Positions 394 to 50,046 of a stretch of DNA of 64,000 nt are shown in pieces. Origin of the DNA: a virus. Lineage: Duplodnaviria > Caudoviricetes. Below the pieces are notes generated by a model. That model was not told where the DNA came from. It worked only from the letters and a program-made list of their open reading frames with translations, and made no database searches. Numbering within the stretch: position 1 is the stretch's first letter; every line of letters starts with the position of its first letter. The DNA is taken from the IMG/VR virus record IMGVR_UViG_3300047457_000974, positions 2,209-66,208 of that record; one strand, written 5' to 3'. Made by a program: the position numbers and the translations under genes.

Positions 394-720
394 ATGGCTA
401 CCCCCCGCAGCACCGTCGCCGAGTCCGAGCTGCGCACGCAGCGCTTAGCTCGCATCATCGCCAGTGGCGGGAAGCGCTCTGACTGCCTGCGCTTTGCTGC
501 GGAGCAGTGGGGGATCGGTGAGCGGCAGACAGAGACTTACATTGCCCGCGCCCGCGAGCTGATCAAGGCCGACTGGAAGGAGATCCACCGCGATCAGATG
601 ATCGCTGATCTGCTCAGCCAGTACAGCACCCTGCAGATGGAAGCCCGTCGCTCCGGGCACCTCGCCGTCGCTCTCGGCTGCATTCACGGCGCCGCCAAAC
701 TCGCTCAGCTCGTCTCGTGA
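394..720 (+). CDS. Putative terminase small subunit (helical/HTH)
   Basis: Directly upstream of and overlapping terL; HTH-like segment WGIGERQTETYIARARE. Confidence 0.6.
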   Translation: MATPRSTVAESELRTQRLARIIASGGKRSDCLRFAAEQWGIGERQTETYIARARELIKADWKEIHRDQMIADLLSQYSTLQMEARRSGHLAVALGCIHGAAKLAQLVS

Positions 721-18358: not shown

Positions 18359-21300
18359 ATGGCGGACTACACCATCACGCTTGATGCCGATCCTCAGCAG
18401 GTGCTGCAGGCATTCCGGCAGATTGAGCAAAATGCGCAACGTACTGGGCAGGTCATCGGCGAGCGCTTCGGCGAGGGCGTCAAGAGGTTTTCCACGGAAT
18501 CGCTGGCTGGCATGCAGGCCGAGCTGAACCGCCTCCAGCAACGGCAGCTCACCGTCGGTGTCAACACCGCAGCGTTTGACAAGCTCGGGCAGCGGATCAA
18601 TGAGGTTCGAGCGCAGCTTGATGCTGCTAGCCGCAAGCAGCTGTCGATCGGTGTAGACGATCGATCTGTGACGGCATTGCAAGCTCGCCTTTCAACACTG
18701 CAGGGCGAGCTGAACCGCGTTGCCATCGGCAGCAAGCGATTCCGAGAGCTGCAGGATGCAGTTGAAGCCACCAATCGCGAGCTGGCCAAGGCCGGCGAAA
18801 GCGCCGATGGGTTTCGCCTCCTGGATGGCGTCGTAGAGGGCATCGGCATTGGCATCACCAACTCCGTATTGGGTGCCGCCAGTGCTGCGGCCAATGCGCT
18901 GCAGGGCCTGGTGATGGACTACGCCCGGCTCGATACCGAGTTACGGCAGGCTGCAGCCGCAGACGGCACTGCCGGCGCCTATGACAAAATCGCCAGCGCG
19001 GTCGATCGTGTTGGCATCGAGGCCGCCGGCAGCACTCAGGACGTTGCCGCATTGGCTACTGAGCTGATTCGTGGTGGCATGACCGCCGATCAGGTTGGCG
19101 CATCACTGGGCGATATTGTCCGAGGCGCGGAAGCCACTGGCACGGCCTACGCCGCAATGGGCTCCAATGTATCGGCAGCGCTCAAGGGTTTCGGCCTGGC
19201 TGCCAGTGATGCCCGCCGCGTGGTGGACGCAATGGTGACCGGTGCCAATGCTTCCGCTACCAGCGTGGAAGGCATGGGCATGGCGTTCAAGTACGCCGCG
19301 CCAGTAGCAAAGATCCTGGGTGTTTCAATCGAGGACCTGGGTATTGCCGTGGGGTTGCTCACTAATGCTGGTATCGATGCGTCAGAAGCTGGCGTGACCC
19401 TCCGTAATGGCCTATCGAAGCTGGCCAGCGCTGCACCGCAGGCAGCAGGTAGCACTCAGCAGCTGTCCGGACAAGCCGCGGATGCTGCGCGAGCAATGCG
19501 CAGCCTTGGTGTCAATATCTATAACTCAAACGGCACCCTAAAGCCCATGCGCGAGACACTGCTTTCGCTCAAGGGTGCATTTGACAAGCTAGGGCCATCA
19601 GCCAAAATCCGCCTTGCTGCAAGCCTTTTCGGCGGCGAGGATGACGGCACAAAATGGCTTGCATTGCTCAATCAAAGCAATGAAGAGATCATCAAGATGT
19701 CTGACACTATGAGCAATACAGGCGGTGCAACCGATAAAGCTCGCGATGCAATGCAGGGCTTTGAGATGTTGACGAAACAAATCAGCGGAACAATCGGTAG
19801 CCTGGGCAATGTACTGGGAAAGGTTACCGTTGCTGCGCTAACGCCTTTTGTGCAGGTGGCCAATATCTTGCTCGGCGTGATGTCATCACTACCGGGTCCG
19901 GTTAAAGACCTGATCGCTGGAATGGTGCTGCTTACTGGTGGTGTCATCGCAGCTACGGCTGCTACGGTGATCTATCAGCGTGTGATGGCATCAGCTATAG
20001 CGCAAAAGTCTATCGCTGAAGTCACAGCACTTGCAAGTGCTTTTCGCACACAGCTCAGCGGTGGCATTACGGCAGCGGCGTCAAGGCTGCCGATGTTGAT
20101 TGGTGGCCTGACAAACCTGCTGCTGCGCATGGGATATGTGATCCTCGCGTACAACCTGTTCAAGGCAGTTACCGGCGCCAATGAAAGAGTTGGCAAAGGA
20201 TTTGCCGAGCGACTTGCCGAAACAAAGAAAGCCCTAGAAAGTATCACACCAGCAGCGGAAAAGGCCGGCAAAGCACTTGATGGCAGCGTAAAGGTTGACG
20301 GAGTAGAGCAGTTTCGTAGTGATATGCGGAGCTTCTTCGATATTGTCGGCAACTTTTCTCGCGCCGCTGATCTCAACACCATACGGGATCAAACAGCGCA
20401 GCTTCAATCTGCATTTGACGGGGTACAGGACTCTGCAATGCAGACTTTCGAGGCGCTGAAAAATGCAACCACTCTCACAGGAGAGCAACGCAAAGATCTA
20501 GGCGATCGCATCAAGGCGCTTGAGGCCATCAGCATTCAAGCCGATGCACAGGCAAAGGCGTATCGCACGCTTGCCCAGGAATATCGTGCAGCAGGTAGAG
20601 CTGCAGAAGCCAAAATTGCAACAAATAATGCCAACGCCATGCAAGCAGAGGCTGAAGTAGCAAATCGCCTGATTATCGGATTGAGAGAAATCGCAGTTCG
20701 CACCGAGGGCGCAGCTGCAGCGTCCGAGCAGTTCATGACTGTAACCGAACGTCTCACGGAGGCTACGCGTGCGCGCATCGCTGCCGAATCGCAGATCAGC
20801 AGAATCGATCAACAACTCTCTATTGGTAAAGCCATGCTGGAGATCAGCAAGGCAATGACCGAATCCGATCAATCGCGATTCAATATCAATAAAGCCAGCT
20901 TGGATCTTGAAATTAAACAGGCTCAGTCACGTGGCGCTAGTGAAGGCGCCATCGAAGCCATTAGATTGCGCATGGCCAGCAACGATCGCCAATCGCTTTC
21001 TGCTCGCTATCGAGCGCTTGTCGATGAGCAACGGATGCAAGCAAGTCTGCTTGAGCTAGAGCAAGCAAGAGAGACTATCTCTAAGCGCATGGAGCTCGGC
21101 GATCTTAGAAAAGAAAGACTTAAAGCGGAACAAGAGCTGCAGAAAGCCGCCTCCAATAATGAGAAGAAAGATATTGAGCTGAACATTGAACGGCTAGAAG
21201 CGCAGATTCAGCTCAGGGAAAGCGATATTCGGCTGCTGGAGCAAACACAGCCCATTCAGCGGCGCATCGCCGCCATTCAGGCTGAAACCGCACGATCTGC

Positions 21301-22612
21301 ATTGCAGGCCCAGGCGGCCCAGGACGGCTATCGCATTGCCGCTGGTGGATCCCTCGTAGCAGTCAACGCTCTGGCGCAACAGACGCAGCAAATAGCAGAG
21401 CGCGAGCTAGCCGCCAACCAGCAACGGATCAGGAACTCCGAGGCCGTTGCCGGCGCAGTGCAATCCATTGGTGCGGCGGAACAAAGCCGGTTTGGCGTTG
21501 CCCGTTCTGCACTGGAATATGAACTGCAACAAGCTGAAGCCAGAAAAGCCAACGAACGGGAAATAGCATCGCTTAGGCAGGCGATTGCAACTCAAGATCG
21601 ACTGGCACTAGAAGCCAAGTATCAGCAGCTGCTGCGTGAACATGAGCTAGAAATGCTCATCCTGGCTATTAAGCAACGGCAGCAAGAAACCACCTTGCAA
21701 ATGGGCGTGCGCGCAATAGAGCTTGACCTCAGCACCGCACAGATAAACCAGCTTCGCGCCAGGGAAAGCGGTGACCAAGCAGCTATCGCCGCCGCTGATA
21801 ATCTGGTTCAGAAACAGCAGATCCTGCTTGCGGGCGAACGCGAAAAGCTCCGGCTGACTCGTGAGGCGAATGCGCTCGAACGAGCAACAATAGTGATGCG
21901 GCAAAGTGCTGCGATCAATTCCGTCCGCGCCGAACAGGCATCGCGTGGCATGCCTATCGCGCCTGAAAACACTGCGGCGCAGATGCAAGCACAGCTAACG
22001 ATCAATCGAGCGCTAGGTAGCGTATTGCGAGAAAATGCACAACTTGCCAATGCTCAGTCCACGGCGGTTTCTCAAAATCAGCTTTATGTAAGCAGGGCTG
22101 CTGACGGTTCTATCGTTATCACAAATAGCCTCCTGGAATCGGCTCGTGCGGCACAGGAAATCAACAATGCGAACCTGGCTGGCGGCATGCGTGCTGCTGC
22201 CGATCAGGCCGAACGGTTCTTGGTCTCGCTGCGTTCTGCTGCTGCACTGCCCGCCGCCAGATTTGCCGGCGGCCCTGTCGAAGCAGGTGAGTCTTACCGA
22301 ATCAATGAGCTGGGGCAGGAGGCGTTCCTGTCTGCTGGTCGGCTGTCGATGATCGACGCGCCGCCCAATAGCATCTGGCGTGCCCCGTCAGAGGGTGTCG
22401 TCATCCCAGCTGGCATCACCGCCCGGCTGCAGGGCCGCACGCAGGCCACCATCTCGCATGGTGGCATCAGCGGCGGCACTGCCGAGCTAGCGATCGAAGT
22501 CGGCAAACTGAGGCAGGAGGTCGGCAACCTGGCCCGCCGCGACTGGTCTGTTCAAGTCACCCAGCGCACAGGGCCCACTGGCTCCCAGGTGATGCGAACA
22601 CTGCTGCGCTGA
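18359..22612 (+). CDS. Tail tape measure protein (TP901 family)
   Basis: 1417 aa, Ala-rich and helical; MGMAFKYAAPVAKILGVSIED...GIDASEAGVTLR core; RFAGGPV...YRINELGQE C-terminus. Confidence 0.93.
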   Translation: MADYTITLDADPQQVLQAFRQIEQNAQRTGQVIGERFGEGVKRFSTESLAGMQAELNRLQQRQLTVGVNTAAFDKLGQRINEVRAQLDAASRKQLSIGVDDRSVTALQARLSTLQGELNRVAIGSKRFRELQDAVEATNRELAKAGESADGFRLLDGVVEGIGIGITNSVLGAASAAANALQGLVMDYARLDTELRQAAAADGTAGAYDKIASAVDRVGIEAAGSTQDVAALATELIRGGMTADQVGASLGDIVRGAEATGTAYAAMGSNVSAALKGFGLAASDARRVVDAMVTGANASATSVEGMGMAFKYAAPVAKILGVSIEDLGIAVGLLTNAGIDASEAGVTLRNGLSKLASAAPQAAGSTQQLSGQAADAARAMRSLGVNIYNSNGTLKPMRETLLSLKGAFDKLGPSAKIRLAASLFGGEDDGTKWLALLNQSNEEIIKMSDTMSNTGGATDKARDAMQGFEMLTKQISGTIGSLGNVLGKVTVAALTPFVQVANILLGVMSSLPGPVKDLIAGMVLLTGGVIAATAATVIYQRVMASAIAQKSIAEVTALASAFRTQLSGGITAAASRLPMLIGGLTNLLLRMGYVILAYNLFKAVTGANERVGKGFAERLAETKKALESITPAAEKAGKALDGSVKVDGVEQFRSDMRSFFDIVGNFSRAADLNTIRDQTAQLQSAFDGVQDSAMQTFEALKNATTLTGEQRKDLGDRIKALEAISIQADAQAKAYRTLAQEYRAAGRAAEAKIATNNANAMQAEAEVANRLIIGLREIAVRTEGAAAASEQFMTVTERLTEATRARIAAESQISRIDQQLSIGKAMLEISKAMTESDQSRFNINKASLDLEIKQAQSRGASEGAIEAIRLRMASNDRQSLSARYRALVDEQRMQASLLELEQARETISKRMELGDLRKERLKAEQELQKAASNNEKKDIELNIERLEAQIQLRESDIRLLEQTQPIQRRIAAIQAETARSALQAQAAQDGYRIAAGGSLVAVNALAQQTQQIAERELAANQQRIRNSEAVAGAVQSIGAAEQSRFGVARSALEYELQQAEARKANEREIASLRQAIATQDRLALEAKYQQLLREHELEMLILAIKQRQQETTLQMGVRAIELDLSTAQINQLRARESGDQAAIAAADNLVQKQQILLAGEREKLRLTREANALERATIVMRQSAAINSVRAEQASRGMPIAPENTAAQMQAQLTINRALGSVLRENAQLANAQSTAVSQNQLYVSRAADGSIVITNSLLESARAAQEINNANLAGGMRAAADQAERFLVSLRSAAALPAARFAGGPVEAGESYRINELGQEAFLSAGRLSMIDAPPNSIWRAPSEGVVIPAGITARLQGRTQATISHGGISGGTAELAIEVGKLRQEVGNLARRDWSVQVTQRTGPTGSQVMRTLLR

Positions 22613-33273: not shown

Positions 33274-33277
<4 letters not shown>
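32924..33277 (+). CDS. Virion structural protein (fibre adaptor-like)
   Basis: Similar organisation to 30064-30438 (YRYDCLM); possibly leaderless, starting 5 nt after octamer 32911-32918. Confidence 0.55.
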
Positions 33278-34793
<1,516 letters not shown>

Positions 34794-34797
<4 letters not shown>

Positions 34798-35282: not shown

Positions 35283-35482
35283 TCAAACTTGTTACCACCA
35301 CGCTGATCAGCTGCGTTGTGTTGTCCGCTATTGGTGGATTCGGAGCACCGTTGCTCTGCCGGCAGTCCGCAGATCAGGAGAAGTGCGGCGATCAATGGCG
35401 CGTTGCCGCCGCAGGTGCTCTCACCGCAGCCGGCAGTCTCGGCACCCTGCTGGCCAGGATGGCAGATACGGATCAGCCCTGA
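35279..35482 (+). CDS. Holin-like two-TM protein
   Basis: Two hydrophobic segments, upstream of the endolysin. Confidence 0.5.
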   Translation: MIKLVTTTLISCVVLSAIGGFGAPLLCRQSADQEKCGDQWRVAAAGALTAAGSLGTLLARMADTDQP

Positions 35483-35778
35483 GCCTGCTGCACCCGACGC
35501 AGCTGGTAGCCCTCAGCGATGTCATCGACATAGCCTTCCAGCTCGCGGGTGCTGGTGGTCCTGGTGCCGACGATCAGCAGCTCGGCATCCTCATCGATCT
35601 GGTGGCTCCCGTTCCGCGTCGGCTTCGCACGGGCGCCAATCACGCCATGCAGCAACGCACCAGCGGCCCGCATCGTGCCGGCTGGCAACAGCTCGAACTC
35701 TCGGCCGAAGATGCACTGGCGGCTTCCTGGCAGTCGATACAGCAGCTCCTCACCCCATGCCAACGTCGGTGCTGTCAT
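35473..35778 (-). CDS. Hypothetical protein, antisense within the lysis cassette
   Basis: MTAPTLAWGEELLYRLPGSRQ...; fills the gap exactly and has its own reverse octamer at 35799-35806. Confidence 0.6.
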   Translation of the reverse strand: MTAPTLAWGEELLYRLPGSRQCIFGREFELLPAGTMRAAGALLHGVIGARAKPTRNGSHQIDEDAELLIVGTRTTSTRELEGYVDDIAEGYQLRRVQQAQG

Positions 35779-35835
35779 CGCCCTGCAGGGACTGCCGCAG
35801 GTTGCCGGGAAAGCTCGATCAGCAACCCCGCCACC

Positions 35836-37011
35836 ATGGGCAACATCCCGCTCTGGGACTACGCACGGTTCACGCGAGATAGCAGCCATCACCGGGCGTT
35901 CTGGAACGCCCTGGACGATGCGCTGACGCCAGAGCAGAAGGCCCGCATCGCATCCGGTGGCGATCTGCGCGGCATCTGGGAGGCACAGCCCGCTGAAGCC
36001 GCACCGGTCGCGCCGACGGGCACGGACTGGCTTACGCCATGCCGTCGCATCGTGCGGGAGTTCGAGGGCTGTCGACTCCAGGCCTACCCGGACCCCGGTA
36101 CTGGCGGTGACCCGTGGACGATCGGCTGGGGGCACACCGGCCCTGAGGTGAAGCCTGGCCTGACCTGGACCCAGCAACAGGCCGACGCAGCTCTCGATGC
36201 CGAGCTGTCCCGCGTTCGCTCTGCTGCTGTTGCCCTGCTGCCGATGATGCCGCGGTGGAACGGTGCCCAGCAGGCTGCGATCATCTCGTTGACCTACAAC
36301 ATCGGTACCGGCGCCCTGGAGGCCAGCACGCTGCGTCGACGCCTGCTGGCGGGCGAGGATCCAGGCACCGTCGTGCGGCAAGAACTGCCGCGCTGGAACA
36401 AGGGCGGCAACGGCGTGATGCCAGGCCTGACGCGACGCCGGGCGGCAGAGGTAGCGCTGTTCATCGGTGCAGCTGATGCGCCAATCTGGCCGGCCGGTAT
36501 GGTCGGCCCTCGCAAGCGGCCTCCGCTCAAGCCTGGTGATCACCATCTCATCGCTGATGACCGCTCGCAGACCCTGACGGCATTCACCCACGACGGTCGC
36601 CAGCTGTGGAAGATCCCCTGCCTCTGCCGCGGGCAGGGCGGCGAGGCCGAATGGAACACCACCGGCAGCGACACACCACCAGGCCTCTATCGCATCGGCA
36701 GGGCTTATCGCGACTACGAACAGGATCCATCGGAGCGGTTCACCCCTGATCGCCGCGCCTATGGCTGGTACTCGCTGGACCTAGAGGGGCAGGAAGGCCA
36801 GGAAGGCCCCGGCAGCAGCAATGGCCGCGACGGGATCATGATGCACGGCGGCGGCTCCGCCTGCGGCTGGCCTGGCGCCTGGGCGCCGCGGCAGGATCTG
36901 CATCCCACCCTCGGCTGCATCCGCTGCCATAACCAGGATCTCAGAGAGCGGATCCTGCCGCTGCTGAGCCTCGGGACCGTCTGGGTATCGGTGCTGCAGG
37001 AACGTGCCTGA
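35836..37011 (+). CDS. Endolysin: GH24 lysozyme fused to an L,D-transpeptidase (YkuD-like) domain
   Basis: EFEGCRLQAYPDPGTGGDPWTIGWGHT...GLTRRRAAE; DTPPGLY...GIMMHGG...TLGCIRCHN. Start ATG 35836 follows octamer 35808-35815. Confidence 0.88.
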   Translation: MGNIPLWDYARFTRDSSHHRAFWNALDDALTPEQKARIASGGDLRGIWEAQPAEAAPVAPTGTDWLTPCRRIVREFEGCRLQAYPDPGTGGDPWTIGWGHTGPEVKPGLTWTQQQADAALDAELSRVRSAAVALLPMMPRWNGAQQAAIISLTYNIGTGALEASTLRRRLLAGEDPGTVVRQELPRWNKGGNGVMPGLTRRRAAEVALFIGAADAPIWPAGMVGPRKRPPLKPGDHHLIADDRSQTLTAFTHDGRQLWKIPCLCRGQGGEAEWNTTGSDTPPGLYRIGRAYRDYEQDPSERFTPDRRAYGWYSLDLEGQEGQEGPGSSNGRDGIMMHGGGSACGWPGAWAPRQDLHPTLGCIRCHNQDLRERILPLLSLGTVWVSVLQERA

Positions 37012-43140: not shown

Positions 43141-44174
43141 CACGAGGCCTCCATGAGCCGAACCAGTGCAGCATTGGGATGCCGAGCACGGCAAAACTGC
43201 AGCGCCTGGTCACCGTTCATGGCTCGAACGTAGCTGTACAGCGGTGATTGGTTTCTGGTCAGCACTTCAACCCAGTACATGGATGAGCCGGGTTCACTGC
43301 ATCTGGTGATGCCCTCGCCCAGTACGTCAGGCTGATTCGGGTCTTTGATGAGAAACTTCTTGAATGCCATTTGTCGAATTGGTAGTGGTCCAGTTTGCAC
43401 ACCAGTTGTTTGGCTGCACGGCACGGAACGGGGAGGAGATGAGCGAGCATTCCAACCCCAATTCCGTTGCGATAACGTGTCTGCAGGTTGCGCAGACGGT
43501 AATCACTTTTGACGGTGCTGAGTGGATTGCCTATCGTGATGCAGTACGGCAATGCCAGTCACTGCAACAACGACAAGAAAAGCAGTGATAATTGCATTGC
43601 CAATTCGCTGCTGAGCTGCAGCGGCTTTACGACCACGTTGAATCACCGTATCTGTAGGCAGGTGGCTATAGGGTGAGCTGGGTGATGCCGAGCAGGGTTG
43701 CGGTCGGGAAGCGATGTCGAAACGTTTGGATGACATCTTCAATCGTGAAACCTGTTGGACACGTCCATTCGAGCTGTTCATTGGTTTTGAGTTGAGAGAT
43801 GTATTGAATAAGAACGATCATCAGACCAGCTCCTTGCCTGTCATCGACGGAAGGCTCCAGGCGCTGGCGTCCGGGCACTGGGTGGCATTGACCAGGTCGT
43901 CCGCGATGGCGCGGCACTGCCGGGCCAGCTCGTCGGCCAGCTCCTTGGGCAGTGGCAGGGAGTCATCCCAGGCGTTGTCGCCCACGGCTCGCGCAGTGAC
44001 GTGCGCGGCATCGATCAGGGCCATCAGCAGCGGGATCAACGGCTGCTGCTTGGTGGCCAGTCGGACGGCATCAGGCAGCTGGAAGCGGGCGGCGGCATCG
44101 GCAGGCATGGCGGCGCGAGCGGCCTGCAGCACCGCGTCGCTCATGGCGGCTTCGCATTCGAGGGCTGTGGACAT
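43140..44174 (-). CDS. Cluster of small hypothetical ORFs (43140-43370, 43503-43781, 43666-43821, 43821-44174)
   Basis: Short minus-strand ORFs, some overlapping; exact boundaries uncertain. Confidence 0.4.
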
Positions 44175-44209
44175 GGGGTGGCGTGGTGGGTGAACGGTGG
44201 AATCATGGC

Positions 44210-44231
44210 GCTCCGGTTACGTTACCGAAGC
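44210..44231. promoter_or_regulatory. 22-bp palindromic operator
   Basis: GCTCCGGTTACGTTACCGAAGC, intergenic, upstream of 44174(-). Confidence 0.75.
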
Positions 44232-44247
44232 AGTTGGTGGTAATCGG

Positions 44248-44796
44248 TTACCGGATCGTCCAGCTGCGGCGCTCCACCAGGGATGCGCCTGGCACGTCGG
44301 CACCGGCCGCTAGGGCAGCCTTGATGGCAGTCTTGTCAGCGCTGTAGGTGGTCTTGACCCGGTAGAGACCATCGGGCAGGTCCACCGGCGCCACGTCGGG
44401 ATCGAGCTCCACGCTGACGGTGCGGCGGCTGGTGAGCTTGTGCTCTGGCAGTGGCCAGGTGGTGCGGTCCGGGTCGATCCGCTGCAGGGCATCCGTCAGC
44501 CGGTCCTGCAGCACGTCAGCGCGATGCTCGGCATCGGTGGCCAGCTCCGCCAGGCGGCGGGCGTGATCGCGTTGCGTAGCGGCCGTGGCCCGCAGTTGAT
44601 CGATCACCCAGCACCACGCGTCGGCCTTCGCCTCCAGTGCCTTGCGGTTGTCAGCCTCGCTGCTGATCAACGCCTCCAGTTCAGTAGTGGCGGCTGCCAC
44701 CTCTGCGGGATCGTCGCTGAACAGATGCTCGGCGGCGGTGTTGATGCGGGCCTGGATCAGCAGGGCGTCACCAGTGAGGGCATAAAGGGAGGTCAT
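44248..44796 (-). CDS. Siphovirus Gp157-family protein
   Basis: MTSLYALT..., KADAW, DKTAIKAAL..GADVPGA.L. Confidence 0.85.
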   Translation of the reverse strand: MTSLYALTGDALLIQARINTAAEHLFSDDPAEVAAATTELEALISSEADNRKALEAKADAWCWVIDQLRATAATQRDHARRLAELATDAEHRADVLQDRLTDALQRIDPDRTTWPLPEHKLTSRRTVSVELDPDVAPVDLPDGLYRVKTTYSADKTAIKAALAAGADVPGASLVERRSWTIR

Positions 44797-44798
44797 GA

Positions 44799-45200
44799 CT
44801 AGAAGGGTTTGGAATAAGCGATGACGTAGTAGCAGCGATGCCTGGGCTGGAATAAATCAGGCATCCGGCTTACGGCATTTCCGAGTGTCGTTTGCCACCT
44901 AGGACGCTTGTCGACAATCTCCAAATCCCGTGGCAGTAGCTGGATGTTGCTTTGCACGAAGTCTTGCAAAACCTTGATGTGGATAGGGTTGCGACCGAAT
45001 CGCTCCAGCAATTCGTCCCTGCGCTCCCAGAGAAAGTCACGCAACGCCGGGGCGCTGTGCTGAAGCCTTGGCGCTAACGGTTGAGTCGCCGCAGGGTTGT
45101 TGCTGCTCGTATCAGACAGAACCTGGAAAAGCGCTTCTTTAGCGAGCGGCTCAAAACGGGTCCACAAGGCCTGGAACTCAAGCGGTGTCATCAGCGGCAC
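44799..45200 (-). CDS. Hypothetical protein
   Basis: 133 aa, lower GC. Confidence 0.5.
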   Translation of the reverse strand: MPLMTPLEFQALWTRFEPLAKEALFQVLSDTSSNNPAATQPLAPRLQHSAPALRDFLWERRDELLERFGRNPIHIKVLQDFVQSNIQLLPRDLEIVDKRPRWQTTLGNAVSRMPDLFQPRHRCYYVIAYSKPF

Positions 45201-45484
45201 AGCGATGGGTTGCGTTCGGCGGCGGTCAGGGCCTCGATGCCGTCCGGTGGATCGATCGGCTCGTGGTCATCCTGCAGCTCCCAAGCCGGCGCCTGGGGCA
45301 GGGCATCGGCTGGCAGCCAGTGGGTATCGCAGCCCCAGGGCTCGGCGGCCAGGCTCCACGTGGGGTGGTAGGGCTCACGGGTCTGTGGATCACTGATCAG
45401 CCCGTGGCCCCACCAGCAGCGACCGCAATGGTCGCGATCACCGGGGGCGGGCATGGTCTCGTCAATCAGGGTCGGTTTGGGCAT
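45191..45484 (-). CDS. Hypothetical protein
   Basis: CCACCACGCCACC leader; THWLP and LTAAERNPSL motifs. Confidence 0.6.
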   Translation of the reverse strand: MPKPTLIDETMPAPGDRDHCGRCWWGHGLISDPQTREPYHPTWSLAAEPWGCDTHWLPADALPQAPAWELQDDHEPIDPPDGIEALTAAERNPSLCR

Positions 45485-45513
45485 GGTGGCGTGGTGGATG
45501 GTGCAGCAGCATT

Positions 45514-45535
45514 GCTGCTGTATCGAAACAGTAGC
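45514..45535. promoter_or_regulatory. 22-bp palindromic operator, symmetric variant
   Basis: GCTGCTGTATCGAAACAGTAGC; both arms changed symmetrically (CTGT/ACAG). Confidence 0.7.
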
Positions 45536-45600
45536 GCAACGGTGCCGTAGCAGGCAATTGCAGGGCTTGGCCGCAGCGGCAGCTTGCTGAGGTGGGAATC

Positions 45601-45630
45601 AAGCCCTGGTTGCAGCACCAGGGCTTTTTT
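45601..45630 (+). terminator. Intrinsic terminator with the U-tract on the + strand
   Basis: AAGCCCTGGT-TGCAGC-ACCAGGGCTT-TTTT. Confidence 0.75.
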
Positions 45631-45650
45631 TGGCTCAGCGGCCTGGAGGA

Positions 45651-48139
45651 TCAGCCGGCGAGCACCAGCGGATACAGCCGAGCGATCAGCCGTTCCAGCG
45701 CCTCGCGCAGGGCAGCAAGGCCGGCGGTGATCGGGGCAACGGCCGGCAGGGGCTGTGCTGCCACCAGCACGGCCGAGCGATCAGCCACGACCATCAGTTG
45801 GCGGCGGCTCCACTGCCCGGCGCGGTAGCAGCGCTCCGCCTGGTAGCGAGTCCACCGGCCGGCGGTGAAGGTGGCGGCGATGGTGGCGACGACGGCAGCG
45901 CGGATCTGCTCGCGGTGCTCGTAGGCGATGGCGGCCAGCAGGGCCAGGCCTGCGGTGATCAGCTGAGCGGCGATCCGGCAGGCGCGGAAGCCGGCAGCGG
46001 TGTGGTTGGCATAGGTGGCCCAGGGGAGAGCCTGCAGGCGGGCCAGGGCGGCCCGGAGGGTCGTGGTGGTCATGGTGGGAAATGCTTGTGGGGTGATCGC
46101 CGGGGCCAACTCAGGGCCTCACCGGTGATGGGGAGAGTGTAGCCTGCCAGGGTCGCTGGGGTGGTTCCTGGCGATGGCATCGGGTTCGCCCGGTGTGGTG
46201 GTGGGGAGCCTCTCGGGGCTCCCCTGCACCACAATCAGGCTGCGAGCCAGGCGCGGGCCTCGGTTTCGGTCATTGCGTCGGTGACCGGCCAGCTGTCCAC
46301 CTGCAGGCAGGTGACGCGCTCCCATGAGTAGCCGAACCAGGCGCCGGCGATCTGATCGCGGCGAATGGTGCGGCCAGAGGGCTTGAGTGGATTGGTGGAG
46401 ATGACGCGGGCGGCGGTCATGGCGGTAGCGGTGTGGTGGTGTGGTGGTTGGCCGGGATTGGTTGCGGCTCCCGGCGGGCCGCGCCATCAGGCGTCCCGCT
46501 CCAGCTCGTCCAGCTGGGCGGCGATGGCGGCCTGTTCCGCCTCGATCGCGTCGAGTGCCGCGGTGTTCTCGGCGGAGAGCGCCTGCAACGCTGCCAGTTG
46601 GCCGCTGATGGAGTGGACCGGCACCGGCCGCGCCAGCAGCGCATCGAGCCGGGCGCTCGTCTCGGTCCAGGCCGCCTCCATGGCGTCGATCTCCGCCATC
46701 AGCGCGTCGATGTCGGTGGTGGGGGTGGCGGTGTCCATGGCGGATGGCGGTGGTGGTGGTGTGGTGGTTGACCGGGATTGGAGACGGCTCCCGGCGGGCC
46801 GTGGGCGGGTCAGCGTTGCTGCACCCGGTACACGCGGAAACTACCGCGCTGCAACTGTTGCCAGGCCTCGATGGCCTCGGCCTCGGTGTCGTGCTCGCTA
46901 ACCAGCACCTCGGTTCCAGCATCGACGACACGCCAGGGCAGCGAGTAGGTGAGGGGGGTGTGAGCCATGGATTTTCCAGGGTGGTGTGGTGGTCGGGATC
47001 GCTCCCGATGCACATACATTAGCCCGTAGCGTGACAACCGGCAGCCACTGCCAGGGCCAGTTCACACATCGTCACGCTTCCGGCGCTTCTGGGCATTGAC
47101 GACGCGGCGCAGTCGATCGGCGCGGCCCTCGGGGGTCAGGGCCAACCAGCAGGCGCGGCACAGCGGCGTGTGGCGCCCACGGTGGGGCTTGCCGCATGTG
47201 ACGCATAGGAGCGGTTCAGCTGGCGGCAGCTCCCCCCGCTCGCGGGCTCGCTGGCGCCGCTTGCGCTCGGCGGGTGTGTCGGGACTCACGAAGATGGCGT
47301 GGTGGGAATGGGTGCCGGGATGGGCTCCCGGCGGGCCGTGGGGATGGGTCAGGCAGCGGCGTCGCGGACGACTGCAACGCGCAGCGTGCCGCCGCACAAG
47401 CGGTTCGCCAGCGCCCGGAGAGCGTTCGCGTCGGTGCGGGTGCGGAATGTATCGGCGCTCGTGATGCGGCAGAGCTCAGGCAGGCGGTTGGGGTTCAGGC
47501 GGACGCCGAACGTCCAGCGGCTGCCGTCGTGACACTCGACTCGGTAGGTGGTGTTGGCCATGGGTCCTGTGTGGTGTGGGTGGTGGTGTGCCGGGATGGG
47601 CTCCCGGCGGGCCGTGATGAGTCAGAACGAGTGGTGGTCGTGGATGGTGTTGTCTGCAGGGCGCAAGCCTTTGCCGCGCAGATCGCTGTAGCGCTGGCGC
47701 ATGATGCCGATCCAGTTGCAGCCAGAAGACAGGAGCTGCCAGTTGCCGGCGTCGTCTTTGACGTAACGGCGGCAGTAGGCCTGATGGCCGCCGCAAGGCT
47801 GAAACTCGTAGCGCGCTTGGCCATTGACGGTTTCAAGCGCGAAGTAGGCGGGGAAGGTGGCGGTGGTCATGGCCGGTGGTGTGGTGGTGGTGTGGTGGTT
47901 GGCCGGGATTGGAGACGGCTCCCGGCGGGCCGTGGAAGCGATCAGGGCCCGTTGCCCTCCAGGCAATCCTCCAGAGAGGCGCAGGCGCTGACCAGTTCGG
48001 CGATCAGCGGGTGTGCGTCCTCGATGACGGCCCATTGCGCATCGCTGTAGGCGTCGCGGATCGCCTGCATCGCATTCGCGACATCGGCGCTGGCTTCAAC
48101 AACGTGAGCCAGATGGATCAGGGAATTGGCGAGGCTCAT
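45651..48139 (-). CDS. Array of eight small early ORFs: 45651-46073, 46235-46420, 46487-46738, 46810-46968, 47062-47289 (Cys-rich, basic), 47349-47561, 47622-47870, 47942-48139
   Basis: Each begins after a CCA-rich leader and most end a few bases before a repeat hairpin. Confidence 0.7.
46421..47934 (-). repeat. Intergenic hairpin-plus-CCA-tract repeat (five full copies, one short variant)
   Basis: + strand CCGGGA-n-GCTCCCGGCGGGCCG at 46452, 46772, 47315, 47591 and 47903; variant TCGGGATCGCTCCCGA at 46993. Confidence 0.92.
47015..47035 (-). promoter_or_regulatory. Duplicated putative early promoter (second copy near 48165-48185)
   Basis: ACATTAGCCCGTAGCGTGACA occurs at both heads of the small-ORF array. 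Confidence 0.65.
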
Positions 48140-48212
48140 GGGGTGGTGGTGCGGTGGCTTCACCACATTAGCCCGTAGCGTGACAGGGTGGCAACCCTGC
48201 CGGCCGGTCAGC

Positions 48213-48506
48213 TCACCATTTCGCTCGATCCGCCCAGTACGCAGCGCTCATCTTCCCCTTCGCGATGTTCTTCGCGTGCCTGGCCTTGAAACTCGCCCGC
48301 CGGGCCTTGGCCGCCGCGCTCTCCCCCTTGCGGGCCGGGCTGCCGGTCACTCCCTGCTGGCCGAACCGGATCAGCTGGTAGCGGCCACCATCGGCCGCCA
48401 TCACCATGTGGCTCTTGGTGGGGTGCTTCGGCGTGCGCTTCGGCTTGTTGACGCCCTCCAGGCCCAGGCGGGCCATGGTGGCGCGGACGCGTTCGGGGAC
48501 TGTCAT
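48213..48506 (-). CDS. Conserved basic viral protein (IRFGQQG...RRASFKARH...SAAYWA)
   Basis: Recognisable motif family of unknown function; late octamer at 48513-48520, 6 nt before the ATG. Confidence 0.75.
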   Translation of the reverse strand: MTVPERVRATMARLGLEGVNKPKRTPKHPTKSHMVMAADGGRYQLIRFGQQGVTGSPARKGESAAAKARRASFKARHAKNIAKGKMSAAYWADRAKW

Positions 48507-50046
48507 GTAGGCAGGTTGCCGGCCTCCATCAACTCCTCAGACACCATCTCAAGCCAGGCTTTGCTCAGGTGCTGCCCCTGCGCCATGCCCTGCTCAAACT
48601 CGTCTGGCGGCTCTCTGGTCAGCTCCTGAATAGGCAGGTGCTGCGCCAGGGCCCAGAGCATGTCCGCCGCCATGCACAAACGGGTCGGCTCGTGGTCGTA
48701 GCTGCGACGCATCGCAGACAGGACGGCCGCAGCGGCGGAGCTCAGCGGCGGGCGGTTGGGGTGGTCATGGTTGGGGTTCCGGGGTGGCGCTTGCAGGGTG
48801 AAACAGAGTGACAGAGGCCGGCAGGGAATAGCACCTACCTGTGTTCACATCGCCTGAAACAACAACAGAATCACTGCCCAGGTGAACGTCGATCACCTTG
48901 ACGGGTCCGTAGACATCATCACTGGCCATGTGTTGGTGCATAACCGACCGGCCAATCAGGGCCGCAAGCTGCGATGGGGTGCGGTTAATCATCACTTCAC
49001 CTCCCCCGCAGGCAGCGGCATGGGCGTGGGGCTTAAGTCAGCCTTGTTTTCCAGTTCCTGCAAGCGCTTCAGTGCGGCGCGGATGGTGTCAAACCGTTTG
49101 ATTTTCTTATGGCCTGTTACCGGCATGAGTAGAACCACAGTTCGCTCCAGCTCCTTCAACGCCAACTCCGCCACATCCCTCGCAGCCATCGGCGCGGGCG
49201 CAGCTTCATCGACCCGCTCGCCAATGACCTGCGCTGCCCAGGTCAACATCCCGGCGTCGGTTGGTTGGCCCGCATCTGCAGCCTGGCAGGCCTGTTCGGA
49301 CAGCCAGGCGATCAGCGAGCCAACCGCCTCGATGGATGGGCCAGGGCCGACCATTTTCGTGGCGTCAGGAGAATGGTGGCCCCAGCGGGCCAGGACGGCA
49401 CGGGCGAACTTAAAGGCGTCCAACGATTCGCCGGGCTCCCAGCCATCTTCGCGGAACCACATCGCCAGCAGGTCTTCATCGCTAGGCTCCCCAACGACGG
49501 AGGCCGGTTCCCTGCCCTCGGGCACAGCCGGTCCATCTGCCTCAGCGGCCAGGGCAGCGCGGGCGCGGTCAAGCAGAGCTTTGTAGGTGCCAGAGGCAGC
49601 CTCTCCTGTTGATGCCAGCCCATCGGCCATCTCCTCACACAGCGCTCTCCAATCAGTACTCATCGTGGTATCTCGGTGTGGTGGGTCTGATGTGAATGAT
49701 CTCCGCCGTGGGGTGCAGCTTCCGCCACAGCCAGCCGGCGGACCACTGGCCGTGGGCTTTGATCCGATAGTCGCGGGTGCGGGAGGCATCGAGCCTGACC
49801 GTCACCCACCAGTCGCACAGATCAGGACGCATCTCGCATCTGCTGTAGCAGCCGCTCAGCGGCCTCCAGCACCCACGGCAGCTCCTCGGGATCCAGCTCG
49901 ATCTCCTGATCTTCCTGCTGCAGGCGGATGAAGAAACCGCCGGCTCGATCGCCGGCCAGTTGCACCTTGACGGCCTTGTAGCTCAGGGGATCGTCCGTGG
50001 CCGAATGCACGGCGATGTCCGTGATGGTGGTGCGATGCTCAGCCAT
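48503..50046 (-). CDS. Hypothetical ORFs (48503-48712, 48765-48995, 48992-49663, 49822-50046)
   Basis: Coupled minus-strand ORFs; 48992-49663 contains ARAALA/FARAVLARWG motifs common in cyanophage hypotheticals. Confidence 0.5.

Follow-up and report, generated by a model that had tools for sequence, protein, structure and literature searches.

Predicted two-helix elements between the small genes of a tailed-phage array belong to a widespread family

The small-gene array and its promoter-like boxes

The window analysed here, the whole stretch of 64,000 nucleotides, is part of a 66-kb tailed-phage genome. The host is probably a picocyanobacterium, and the source habitat of the phage is freshwater. 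The phage encodes RecT-like, Gam-like, SSB and clamp proteins, and no integrase was found among the 20 large ORFs scanned. An array of small genes, situated in a variable early region of the phage, runs along the minus strand as follows (coordinates are those of the window).

48165–48194, minus strand: promoter-like box P1 (TTGCCA at 48189–48194, 18-nt spacer, TAATGT at 48165–48170)
48140–48164, minus strand: 5′ leader of g1 (hairpin GGTG AAGC CACC at 48153–48164, then a CA-rich tract)
47942–48139, minus strand: g1, 65 aa, from the ORF list (homolog in L107, 69% aa)
47899–47939, minus strand: element copy 1, long loop (covariance model 46.6 bits)
47622–47870, minus strand: g2, 82 aa, variable cassette (read depth 0 in runs X6 and X9, flanks covered)
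47587–47621, minus strand: element copy 2, short loop (model 49.1 bits; fold −16.4 kcal/mol, z −3.1)
47349–47561, minus strand: g3, 70 aa, from the ORF list (homologs in L115 and L123)
47311–47345, minus strand: element copy 3, short loop (model 51.5 bits; fold z −2.7)
47062–47289, minus strand: g4, 75 aa, GTG start (conserved zinc-ribbon family)
47016–47036, minus strand: promoter-like box P2, the 21-mer TGTCACGCTACGGGCTAATGT (from the repeat and alignment with relatives)
46993–47008, minus strand: 5′-leader hairpin UCGGGA-GCGA-UCCCGA behind P2 (from reading and folding)
46810–46968, minus strand: g5, 52 aa, read and translated (sole match a weak DUF2188 below cut-off)
46768–46808, minus strand: element copy 4, long loop, G-U closing pair (model 43.6 bits)
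46487–46738, minus strand: g6, 83 aa, from the ORF list, predicted helical, acidic
46448–46488, minus strand: element copy 5, long loop (model 42.9 bits)
46235–46420, minus strand: g7, 61 aa, from the ORF list (homologs in L087/L319 and L118)
46197–46232, minus strand: unrelated strong hairpin GGGGAGCC...GGCUCCCC (fold −29.8 kcal/mol, z −5.2)
46070–46180, minus strand: g8, 36 aa (ATGA stop-start overlap with g9)
45651–46073, minus strand: g9, 140 aa (ATGA stop-start overlap with g8)
45601–45626, no strand assigned: 10-bp hairpin at the end of the array (fold −23.2 kcal/mol, z −3.0)
45485–45565, minus strand: third promoter-like box region (TTGCCT...TACTGT), then a hairpin and a CA tract

The ORFs of the array are 36–140 aa long (g1–g7, 52–83 aa), and the six detected by the gene caller have a third-position GC of 0.80–0.94. 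No array ORF has a PHROG match or a Pfam match above the curated cut-off, g4 alone belonging to a conserved, arginine-rich zinc-ribbon family; the host-takeover or anti-defence role suggested for these genes is putative. A g2 homolog is absent from all fetched loci, and the counterparts of g8 and g9 are fused into a single frame in L320.

The 21-mer of P2 occurs twice in the window, at 47016–47036 and at 48165–48185 (0 expected), and the third box region, which heads a 97-aa gene at 45191–45484, aligns with P1 and P2. All three align with counterparts in L319 and L320, with TAnnnT invariant, so that the proposal of gene blocks headed by a 21-bp promoter-like sequence is supported both by its two copies and by conservation of the box in relatives. 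A strict sigma-70 consensus scan did not call P1, and the 18-mer of the promoter box had 0 matches in viral contigs. Sigma-54 and NtcA sites were rejected because of wrong spacing. A promoter for a single-subunit RNA polymerase was also dropped, no such polymerase being present among the 20 ORFs scanned. A hairpin comes next in all seven aligned boxes, its stem sequence differing from that of the element described below, followed by a CA-rich tract that is clear in six of the seven. The g1 leader folds with −10.6 kcal/mol (z −2.8), its stem being retained in L320_a, and the stem-loop behind P2 (TCGGGAGCGATCCCGA) recurs after the box in L319 (L319_c). None of g2, g3, g4, g6 and g7 is headed by its own promoter box.

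Two other hairpins lie in the lower part of the array. The one at 46197–46232 is extended by GUGGUG/CACCAC and enters a CCACCACACC tract ahead of g8. The one at 45601–45626 carries a T-run on the plus strand and an A-run on the array strand, with a terminator-like call on the plus strand.

A repeated element between the genes

The pattern CCGGGAG-N3-15-ATCCCGG matches the window at five places, each on its minus strand, against 0.01 expected by chance and with none of 100 shuffles of the window reaching five; a pattern search over all 66,208 bp of the genome found no further copy. With a covariance model trained on 110 instances, the five copies score 43–52 bits, the next best match in the window reaching 13.7, and thus pattern and model agree on the five full copies that had been placed at 46452, 46772, 47315, 47591 and 47903. 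The loop is short in the copies at 47315 and 47591 and long in those at 46452, 46772 and 47903. By reading of the sequence, stop codons lie 6–11 nt on the 5′ side of the copies. The CCACCACACC tract said to follow the repeat is likewise enriched, with 11 occurrences in place of the 0.16 expected, 7 of them within the array. A sixth site, at 46993, had been described as a variant with a compensatory outer pair. It is a genuine hairpin, one pair of which is compensated (C-G to U-A), but not a full copy of the element: the hairpin at 46993–47008 has a GCGA loop and lacks the 5′ half of the element, and the covariance model does not call it.

Covariation in two predicted helices

Across the family, the element is predicted to fold as two helices, both maintained by compensatory changes: a 7-bp hairpin (helix 2), and 3–6 bp by which the loop of that hairpin pairs with the 5′ flank (helix 1). 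The closing pair of helix 2 (n = 109 copies) is G-C in 97, G-U in 10 and A-U in one; further compensated forms are GCCCGGA/TCCGGGC and GCCGGGG/CCCCGGC, and in some copies shortenings by 1 bp are matched on both arms. Each of the three core pairs of helix 1 shows a double compensatory change in some copy, to A-U in L084, to C-G in L088, to U-A in L258, and to C-G in phage S-H1 and in L350. Helix 1 also extends further past 3 bp than in permuted flanks (mean 4.09 vs 3.73; 0 of 2000 permutations reach the observed value). In the window, copy 1 has ACGGC/GCCGU as helix 1 and GCCGGGA/UCCCGGC as helix 2, and copy 5 has GCGGC/GCCGC, a compensated G-C where copies 1 and 4 have A-U. A loose scan of 43 rows gave 19 G-U against 9 A-C pairs, favouring the sense strand. 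Because compensatory changes and G-U pairs preserve the helices, we conclude that the repeat would fold on the coding strand, where an RNA or single-stranded DNA stem had been proposed; the description as a stem alone overlooked the other helix, in which the loop pairs with the 5′ flank.

The two helices together may make either a pseudoknot or a two-state switch. Covariation supports both of them, as in an H-type pseudoknot, and all five copies in the window are compatible with both helices at once, helix 1 having either 3 bp and a linker of 2 nt or 5 bp and a linker of 6 nt. In six copies elsewhere, with 7-nt loops, helix 1 has 6 bp and the linker is 1 nt, and therefore both helices cannot coexist there, so that pseudoknot and alternative hairpins are both candidate folds. 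ViennaRNA z-scores for the long-loop copies are −0.1 to −1.3. In the consensus, (A)CGGCCCGCCGGGAGCC..ATCCCGGC, the sequence is highly conserved, and nearly all conserved bases are paired, with 2–4 unpaired.

Position between stop and start codons

The element occupies a fixed place between genes. A stop codon within 30 nt upstream and a start codon within 70 nt downstream, on the element's strand, are found for 70 of 90 unique instances, compared with 11 of 90 in the reverse-strand control. The stop-to-element spacing is 5–10 nt in 60 of 76 cases, about 7 nt being typical, and the distance to the start has quartiles of 24, 26.5 and 32 nt. Leaders after the element are SD-like in 34 cases and CA-rich without SD in 23, and in L167 a tRNA-Gly gene begins 6 nt past the element, the only such arrangement in 60 sources scanned; the element is independent of the type of ribosome-binding site and of translation. 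ARAGORN made no call on tRNA-like stretches past the element in L159 and Zooman. In a high-GC clade the conserved unit reaches across the stop codon, with CCCCAC 59–93% conserved per position and Ala-Ala ends in 15 of 77 upstream genes.

Distribution of the element family

The repeat had been treated as private to this phage; it belongs to a large family, mostly with one or few copies per contig. Its 16-base core was found in at least 118 other viral contigs. Among the matches listed, the full hairpin was found by strict pattern in 82 of 118 core-bearing loci, the covariance model gave 110 hits in 100 core-bearing viral loci, and most element-bearing contigs carry one or two copies. The model gave 0 hits in 80 unrelated viral loci (849,790 bases). 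The element also occurs in the cultured Synechococcus phage S-H1 (two copies; host Synechococcus WH 7803), a Microbacterium phage, a Bacillota isolate genome and Cyanobium chromosomes. In eight aligned Cyanobium/Synechococcus loci it lies directly past the stop of a conserved gene, identical in seven and differing at three positions in L262.

A search of GenBank phages with the 35-nt short-loop copy gave no match; longer queries found S-H1 and a weak match in Zooman, the other rows being chance matches of 18–24 nt. Gapped-pattern matches in high-GC bacteria (Streptomyces, Micromonospora and others) have long loops that do not start with GCC and were excluded, having the look of chance matches or of coding sequence. 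The low-GC and high-GC element-bearing loci have no ORF family of 80 aa or more in common, the largest one, in 21 of 119 sources, being confined to high-GC sources, and shared genes linked the phage to a host by single weak matches to Cyanobium loci only.

Rfam 15 gave two unrelated weak hits in the region 45300–48700 at E up to 10, none overlapping the element, and at gathering score only a tRNA in 10 further element-bearing loci. A weak Yfr1-like match at 48505–48562 was set aside (22 bits against a gathering score of 38), lying on the opposite strand and outside the element. The core string had no occurrence in the literature searched, and we regard the family, as delimited by these searches, as widespread and previously undescribed.

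Element-bearing genomes span 38–70% GC. Much of the apparent sequence conservation stems from the exact-word searches, and conservation across this range exceeds what a purely structural barrier would need, which suggests a sequence-specific partner or constraint behind it.

Gene content and order at the joints

Gene content and gene order differ between relatives at the joints. In reads of four DNA runs, g2 has zero depth in X6 and X9 with its flanks covered, and an X9 contig (47917–48199) passes from g1 directly into a short-loop copy. The g6 homolog of L163/L320 (86% aa) is followed by the element and then by a different gene, and in L320 g6 stands before g4. A P2-like box is fused to the g7 leader in L319, the two alignments overlapping in the CA tract, and gene order is also shuffled in L107. 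The joints of the reordered or replaced genes in L319 and L320 fall at the element or the CA tract, sites of repeats at which short-read assembly contigs also break for technical reasons. The objection that fixed gene content would have raised against exchange falls away, because both content (g2 absent in X6 and X9) and order (L319, L320) vary among relatives. Metagenomes scanned for the exact 3′ terminus of g1 yielded three unrelated high-GC contigs and no relatives.

The proposed modular shuffling array is partly supported by these few gene-sized differences at the joints. In a neighbourhood test the same upstream neighbour was found in 1 of 9 comparisons for element joints, 21 of 166 for other spaced gaps and 22 of 94 for tight ones, with no clear difference and with a crude gene caller that assigned the element to only 15 joints.

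Readings of function

We consider the element to be a structured RNA at cistron boundaries that also serves as a recombination linker between gene cassettes, a reading to which we give a probability of roughly 0.5. On polycistronic early transcripts the element would mark cistron boundaries in cis, its hairpin and flank-loop helix giving a compact pseudoknot or, where the linker is short, two alternative hairpins. Occupying the ribosome-free gap from a stop codon to the next start, it would shield both adjoining cistrons from exonucleases, the upstream one at its 3′ end and the downstream one at its 5′ end, and would keep the G-poor, CA-rich translation leader from being paired by coding sequence nearby. 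On primary transcripts the promoter box, a different 5′ hairpin and the CA tract would make an equivalent design. At the DNA level, homologous recombination at the linkers may add, remove and reorder cassettes among related phages, because a 35–60-nt linker (stop, element and leader) recurs between unrelated genes. That RNA is the active form, that it acts as a barrier or insulator, and how recombination proceeds are what we infer from these patterns.

Several known systems share parts of this design. Intercistronic RNase III hairpins in T7 and SP82 early mRNAs remain at the processed ends as stabilisers, and the array resembles such early units in its promoter(s), early genes split by conserved hairpins, and terminator. 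RNase III, however, requires ~20 bp of dsRNA, roughly two turns, and helices of 7 bp and 3–6 bp are too short for it. The REP/BIME sequences of enterobacteria are GC-rich imperfect palindromes in operons, a few nt past stop codons, which stabilise upstream mRNA and, near the stop, affect translation of the upstream gene; they are high-copy, species-specific repeats of host chromosomes that occur in either orientation and are moved by RAYT transposases, whereas the element is mainly phage-borne, sense-strand in 70 of 90 instances and conserved across phyla. The start-associated sequences (SAS) of Cluster K mycobacteriophages are 13 bp long, 3–7 bp from the start codon and overlapping the Shine-Dalgarno position, confined to that cluster, of unknown function and tied to gene starts, with little support found by the authors for RNA hairpins in the extended form, ESAS (PMC3203893). 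SAS and the element are alike in being asymmetric, in one orientation, limited to the non-structural half of the genome and placed before many unrelated genes (PMC3203893). Unlike SAS and ESAS, the element ends ~26 nt before the start (quartiles 24–32), clear of the ribosome-binding site, precedes SD-like and SD-less leaders alike, and has covarying helices.

A more specific form of the cistron-boundary reading is possible, if rather unlikely: the element could be a new class of self-folding RNA, a miniature pseudoknot of ~26–40 nt that acts as a bidirectional exoribonuclease roadblock at cistron boundaries. The exoribonuclease-resistant RNAs (xrRNAs) of flaviviruses and plant viruses are stem-loops that pair with a 3′ tail in a knot-like fold and stop 5′–3′ exonuclease. 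The element would resemble them as a compact stem-loop whose loop is paired outside the hairpin, but has no sequence or Rfam relation to them, is much smaller and belongs to a bacterial and phage setting, exonuclease resistance being putative here. In plastids, PPR/HAT barriers consist of a protein bound to an unstructured site, in contrast to the self-folding GC-rich RNA proposed for the phage element. The plastid intercistronic expression element is short, lies between cistrons and yields stable translatable units from a polycistronic transcript (PMC2230500); the phage element is likewise intercistronic, in a setting of cyanobacterial-type gene expression. Such a roadblock, tentatively, would be conserved at the nucleotide level in picocyanobacterial chromosomes as well as in phages that infect cyanobacteria, Bacillota and Actinobacteria, would yield stable monocistronic units as a bacterial counterpart of xrRNAs and plastid protein barriers, and might, as a portable insulated joint, let phages trade small genes without re-tuning expression.

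It is unlikely that the element is mainly a DNA-level recombination linker of the PeSL or attC kind, its folding being incidental or taking place in ssDNA during recombination by the phage RecT-like protein, a protein whose part in shuffling at the repeat is inference only. The attC sites of integrons are imperfect inverted repeats with GTT-type core sites and low sequence but high structure conservation; the consensus of the element lacks the GTT core and is highly conserved in sequence. PeSLs are closer. PeSL (promoter-early stem-loop) cassettes are mobile regulatory units of T4-type phages, each with a strong sigma-70-like promoter and a stem-loop that terminates transcription (PMC2839356). 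Both PeSL and element are short conserved intergenic stem-loop units in a variable region of small ORFans, and each is proposed to supply the homology on which the phage's own recombination machinery acts (PMC2839356); here, too, the differences among relatives in a variable, ORFan-rich region are bounded by the units. The element differs in that it holds no promoter (no −35/−10), three boxes (two of the 21-mer, one related) serving 9–10 genes; its hairpin has no T-run, with at most two T in the 8 nt after the stem in 85 of 91 phage copies, a count from sequence only; it has a second covarying helix; and it is found far beyond one phage group, host chromosomes included. A purely DNA-level linker would fit an array placed in the variable early region of this phage, with its RecT-like, Gam-like, SSB and clamp proteins, the presence or absence of g2 bounded by the element, the shuffled orders in L319, L320 and L107 with joints at the element or CA tract, and the unit of the high-GC clade that spans the stop codon (CCCCAC; Ala-Ala ends in 15 of 77). 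PeSL cassettes show such behaviour (PMC2839356). Against it stand the two covarying helices and the sense-strand excess of G-U pairs, the single chromosomal copy nearly unchanged in eight cyanobacterial genomes, a tight stop and start spacing that DNA recombination does not require, and the neighbourhood test. Most contigs, among the matches listed, have only one or two copies, which cannot drive rearrangement within a genome.

An RNA or DNA site for the g4-family protein, of the nut/boxB or operator kind, through which the phage would control read-through or translation of early cistrons, is quite unlikely. The g4 protein combines an arginine-rich N-terminal helix with a zinc ribbon (CxxC...CxxC) and a C-terminal helix that is basic, with four invariant Cys in the family alignment (A4), and arginine-rich peptides can bind RNA hairpins, as lambda N does with boxB. 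Among the array genes g4 alone has a wide family, tblastn placing it in 27 loci, 26 of them bearing the element, against at most seven for each other array gene. The element was present on the same strand, mostly 200–600 nt upstream, in 15 of 17 loci fetched via g4 alone and in 9 of 11 previously unseen contigs fetched in this way, compared with 3 of 18 Gam-selected and 0 of 80 g0-selected loci. This co-occurrence, however, is explicable by shared descent and linkage in one phage clade, and the element exists widely without g4, host chromosomes included, because the g4 profile matches only 1 of 23 low-GC element-bearing viral loci (at 53% GC) and 1 of 120 bacterial loci. The g4 AlphaFold2 model (mean pLDDT 87) found no PDB match at E < 1, the best at E = 1.0, and hence no significant match to an RNA- or DNA-binding protein.

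That the hairpin is a transcription attenuator or terminator grading expression along the array is improbable. The host chromosomal copy in Cyanobium, the same hairpin followed by ATTTCTCT, is called terminator-like, and PeSL stem-loops are reported as effective terminators (PMC2839356). The phage copies, by contrast, mostly lack the T-run, and none in the window was called; g2, g3, g4, g6 and g7 need read-through because they have no promoter box of their own; and a second helix and a conserved 5′ flank are alien to terminators.

A small ligand-sensing or self-cleaving RNA would explain the nucleotide-level conservation among very different genomes, and its pseudoknot-compatible fold of ~26–35 nt lies within the size range of the smallest known aptamers, yet such a riboswitch or ribozyme is very improbable, as no Rfam family covers the array (E up to 10) or the 10 further loci, the conserved bases are nearly all paired, much of the conservation stems from the exact-word searches, and there is no expression platform because the element overlaps neither a ribosome-binding site nor a terminator. 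A tRNA-like 3′ end was rejected, the matching 5′ acceptor strand being missing, and mimicry of CRISPR repeats was dropped on reading the sequences against known repeats.

Implications

The element is thus not local to one phage but a widespread family with a second predicted helix, and its conservation at the nucleotide level across phyla points to a further partner or constraint. The cultured pair of S-H1 and Synechococcus WH 7803 makes the system testable. If the cistron-boundary reading is true, a short, easily recognised RNA element would mark gene boundaries in many uncultured phages and in picocyanobacterial hosts, giving a new signal by which to annotate small early genes overlooked by gene callers, and a compact natural part with which operons could be insulated or stabilised in cyanobacteria and perhaps in further bacteria. 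It would also provide a concrete system in which to study accessory-gene shuffling far outside the T4-type phages, the group from which linkers of this sort were first reported.

Setting and layout of the array

The phage genome is a single contig of 66,208 bases with a tailed-phage layout, of which the window covers 64,000, and GC is 54–70% along the window.

Genes of the phage (window positions)
717–2249, plus strand: terminase large subunit (family search of large ORFs)
Plus strand: DUF4055 portal-like protein
Plus strand: Mu-F-like protein
18359–22612, plus strand: tape-measure protein
33274–34797, plus strand: fibre-like protein (collagen triple-helix repeats, glycine-rich domain)
35383–37011, plus strand: lysozyme/YkuD fusion, one 542-aa ORF
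44248–44796, minus strand: Mu Gam-like protein
Minus strand: dCTP deaminase, thymidylate synthase
Minus strand: sliding clamp, SSB, RecT-like protein, two helicases

A phage lysozyme domain and a YkuD L,D-transpeptidase domain share the fusion ORF, a pairing unusual for an endolysin. No tRNA genes were found in the window by ARAGORN. Public runs containing the locus, all of DNA, mostly carry freshwater, aquatic or lake labels, with drinking water, wastewater and soil making up the rest.

The array lies on the minus strand between the Gam gene and the gene of a 97-aa protein (48213–48506) that is widespread in phages (phrog_7595). On the plus strand, the stretch at 48505–48562, antisense to the junction of the 69-aa and 97-aa genes, weakly resembles Yfr1, a cyanobacterial sRNA; at 22 bits (gathering score 38; E 0.28) the match falls below threshold and is probably due to chance.

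Order of features along the minus strand (g1–g9, small array genes; P1 and P2, promoter-like boxes)
Block 1: box P1, small hairpin, CA tract, g1, element, g2, element, g3, element, g4
Block 2: box P2, hairpin UCGGGA-GCGA-UCCCGA, CA tract, g5, element, g6, element, g7
Array end: a different strong hairpin leading into a CCACCACACC tract, g8/g9, 10-bp hairpin
Past the array: a third related box, hairpin, CA tract, next gene

The five copies of the folded repeat described in the sequence-only reading were all recovered: CCGGGAG-N3-15-ATCCCGG occurs at 46452, 46772, 47315, 47591 and 47903, always on the minus strand, against an expectation of 0.01, and no sixth occurrence was found elsewhere in the 66,208-base genome. 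The 21-mer box that was said to head the gene blocks is likewise real, with two occurrences where none is expected, and CCACCACACC is found 11 times (0.16 expected), with 7 of the 11 inside the array. The six array ORFs picked up by the gene caller have a third-position GC of 0.80–0.94. At the far end, g8 (36 aa) and g9 (140 aa; together 45651–46180, minus strand) overlap at ATGA and are continuous as a single 171-aa frame in the related contig L320 (about 5790–6320), so that g8 may be a split-off N-terminal extension or a coupled upstream ORF. The hairpin closing the array (45601–45626) has a plus-strand T-run, with an A-run on the array strand and no plus-strand gene ending nearby; it may be a bidirectional terminator or a stop for antisense transcription.

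The element folds through two helices

The hairpin itself (helix 2) pairs GCCGGGA with UCCCGGC. Of 109 distinct copies, 97 have a G-C closing pair, 10 a G-U and 1 an A-U, and diverged copies hold the helix through matched changes (GCCGGA/UCCGGC, GCCGGG/CCCGGC, GCCGGGG/CCCCGGC and GCCCGGA/UCCGGGC). A second helix (helix 1), which had escaped the sequence-only reading, is formed by GGC in the 5' flank and the GCC that opens the loop. Double compensatory changes are found at all three of its pairs (A-U in L084, C-G in L088, U-A in L258, C-G in Synechococcus phage S-H1 and L350), and within the window a fifth pair is G-C in copy 5 versus A-U in copies 1 and 4. Helix 1 lengthens outward up to the loop limit, with a mean of 4.09 bp compared to 3.73 bp for permuted flanks, and none of 2000 permutations reached 4.09. 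This covariation evidence rests on a minority of variant copies, because exact-word searches account for a large part of the seeming invariance. G-U pairs exceed A-C pairs by 19 to 9 in a loose scan (43 rows, chance rows included), indicating folding of the sense strand.

Judged by their helix and linker lengths, the five copies in the window are compatible with a compact H-type pseudoknot, with either 3 bp and a 2-nt linker or 5 bp and a 6-nt linker ending in AA. Six copies outside the window have a helix 1 of 6 bp and a linker of 1 nt, and there the two helices must alternate. Nested folding places helix 2 of the short-loop copies at -16 kcal/mol and gives two hairpins of nearly equal energy for the long-loop copies.

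A widespread family at gene boundaries

The 16-base core CGGCCCGCCGGGAGCC occurs in at least 118 IMG/VR contigs, and 82 of 118 core-bearing loci carry the complete hairpin by a strict pattern. A covariance model built from 110 element instances recovered exactly five copies in the window (43–52 bits; next match 13.7 bits) and 110 matches across 100 element-selected loci, compared to none in 80 unrelated viral loci (849,790 bases in total). Among 50,697 GenBank phage records, Synechococcus phage S-H1 (host WH 7803) carries two copies (40.8 and 26.9 bits), which lie at L337 3496–3536 and 1730–1764, and Microbacterium phage Zooman an element-like copy directly after the stop of gene 124 (32.3 bits). 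The string GCCCGCCGGGAGCC is absent from 8.4 million full texts searched, and the array described in the accessible portion of a recent preprint on non-coding element mining is a different one.

In contigs of bacterial genomes, a gapped pattern has at least 120 matches. Among the matches listed are Cyanobium and Synechococcus genomes and the isolate Paludifilum halophilum, whose match is identical to viral contig L195; others listed come from MAGs labelled Bacillota, Clostridia, Thermosipho, Desulfovibrio, Bdellovibrionota and Chloroflexota, labels that are weak evidence on short contigs. Many high-GC actinobacterial matches, with long loops not starting in GCC, look like chance and were set aside. 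Within the chromosomes of eight Cyanobium/Synechococcus genomes, the element directly follows the stop of a conserved gene of ~110 aa; seven of these copies are identical and one (L262) differs at three positions, with variation in third codon positions and in the spacer downstream. Three Cyanobium loci (L222, L257, L264) share a second recurrent chromosomal site, where another hairpin (GGGCCCC...GGGGC) stands ahead of the element, and in L222 and L257 the apparent end of a convergent gene comes after it.

Placement relative to genes is regular. With an upstream stop counted only if it closes an ORF of at least 40 codons, 70 of 90 unique flanked instances have, on the strand of the element, a stop no more than 30 nt upstream and a start no more than 70 nt downstream, compared to 11 of 90 on the reverse strand. 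The stop lies 5–10 nt from the element in 60 of 76 cases, the start follows at quartiles of 24, 26.5 and 32 nt, and the downstream ORF has a median of 82 codons. The element is not a ribosome-binding site, since it precedes leaders with SD-like words (34 cases) as well as CA-rich leaders devoid of them (23 cases), and in L167 a tRNA-Gly gene that starts 6 nt past it. By ribosome footprints, the gap that the element fills is a stretch covered by neither the terminating nor the initiating ribosome. Our preferred reading, to which we give a probability of roughly 0.5, is a cistron-boundary RNA structure that acts as a barrier or insulator and serves as a recombination linker as well.

Several loci show further features. 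The deposited S-H1 CDS at L337 3112–3510 (MK105819.1 6242–6640) is on the opposite strand and may be a mis-annotation; a same-strand ORF (about 3281–3496) ends 7 nt before the GGC core of the element, as in the general pattern. Upstream of CA-rich leaders, S-H1 carries a repeated promoter-like box of its own (GCAATAATT/GCAATACTT). Six low-GC contigs (L150, L151, L221, L275, L301, L306) share a box, (C)CTGGC(G/A/C)CAC(G/A)T(A/T/G)T(A/AAAA), directly 5' of the element. In Zooman (L338 420–520) and L159 the stretch after the element looks tRNA-like by eye, with a T-arm-like GGGTTTCGAATAC in Zooman; ARAGORN called no tRNA in either.

Gene exchange within the array

The sequence-only reading had proposed that genes are shuffled at the repeat, and comparison across relatives and reads bore out that gene content is not fixed. 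When contigs from four independent DNA runs were compared with window positions 44800–49000, gene 2 (47620–47900) had a depth of 0 in runs X6 and X9 and of 3–4 in X5, with both flanks at 16–65, and an X9 contig covering 47917–48199 runs on into a short-loop copy. Joints of 47343/47344 to 47942 appear in X5 and X6. We place weight only on the depth gap and the bridging contig, because contig ends at nearly every copy also arise from short-read assembly at repeats.

Among contigs retrieved through Gam, the closest relatives show differences in the array. Gene order in L320 (=L163) is g0, a new 67-aa gene, g6, element, a new ~110-aa gene, g4 and g8/g9, placing g6 ahead of g4, the reverse of the window. 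L319 joins a P2-like box and hairpin to the g7 leader, and the CA tract is where the two alignments overlap; L107 reads g1, short-loop copy, g4-like gene. The conserved unit of the high-GC clade extends upstream over the stop codon: CCCCAC is 59–93% conserved per position, 67 of 77 stops are TGA, and the upstream gene ends in Ala-Ala in 15 of 77. Unrelated upstream genes in high-GC viral loci often share the ending GCC GCC TGA in the 30 nt upstream of the element, a recurrence suggesting that the final codons and stop of the upstream gene belong to the exchanged linker.

These exchanges could be taken to mean that the element acts as a linker at the DNA level. Three observations count against a special recombination role: of 18 Gam-selected loci just 3 contain the element; the whole region is variable; and the same upstream neighbour family recurred in 1 of 9 comparisons at element joints, in 21 of 166 at other spaced joints and in 22 of 94 at tight joints, with no clear difference among these classes (the element was tied to 15 joints by the gene caller). 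We consider a DNA-level linker unlikely, though the strongest of the alternatives to a cistron-boundary RNA structure.

g4 is a conserved companion of the element in one clade

The array ORFs, described earlier as unrelated, gave no PHROG match and no Pfam match above the cut-off; the exception is g4, which is not an ORFan but a member of a conserved ~75-aa family almost confined to element-bearing contigs. The 75-aa product of g4 (47062–47289, minus strand) has an arginine-rich N-terminal helix, a CxxC...CxxC zinc ribbon with four invariant Cys and a basic C-terminal helix; a fold search gave no significant match. Homologs occur in 27 retrieved loci, 26 of them with the element, and retrieval by g4 only placed the element on the same strand in 15 of 17 loci, and in 9 of 11 new contigs. 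An element that serves as the g4 binding site is a slightly weaker contender than the DNA-level linker: the g4 profile matches 0 of 80 g0-selected loci, a single one of the 23 low-GC element loci and a single one of the 120 bacterial loci. From this distribution, g4 is a candidate partner of the element within one clade, not a general one.

Relation to known systems and to the phage's leaders

The chromosomal Cyanobium/Synechococcus copies are followed by ATTTCTCT and were called terminator-like. Of 91 copies, just 6 show at least 3 T within the 8 nt that follow the stem, so that the phage copies are not canonical terminators, and the element misses at least one tested defining feature of intrinsic terminators; we regard an attenuator as improbable. 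A riboswitch or ribozyme has very little in its favour, no Rfam family matching the element in the array region or ten further element-bearing loci.

The element was also compared with described repeats. As far as the available text of the source describes them, the promoter-early stem-loop cassettes (PeSLs) of T4-type phages share the setting and evolutionary behaviour of the element, whereas the element has no promoter and no terminator tail, has a second helix and is far more widely distributed (PMC2839356); for these reasons we do not file it as a PeSL. Relative to the start-associated sequences (SAS/ESAS) of Cluster K mycobacteriophages, as the available part of their description has it, at least one tested defining feature is absent (PMC3203893), and the same holds for attC sites and RNase III sites, while REP elements differ in at least one defining feature.

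The promoter-like box is kept in the relatives L319 and L320 with an invariant TA...T; a strict sigma-70 consensus scan did not call it. A hairpin follows the box in 7 of 7 aligned regions, with stem sequences that differ among regions, and then a CA-rich tract, clear in 6 of 7 and weakest in L319_a. SD-like words are found at few of the phage's genes. CA-rich, G-poor leaders (CA of at least 0.70 over the last 30 nt) precede 11 of 12 genes in 43821–48139 versus only 2 of 22 plus-strand genes examined. Since the box regions share a hairpin and CA tract and the array genes have CA leaders, the standard of this phage appears to be a hairpin at the 5' end with an unstructured CA leader behind it. 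Among the facts left unexplained, the strongest is that the element is conserved at the nucleotide level across genomes of 38–70% GC. Within the hairpin-and-CA-leader design, the element would supply the hairpin at internal cistrons.
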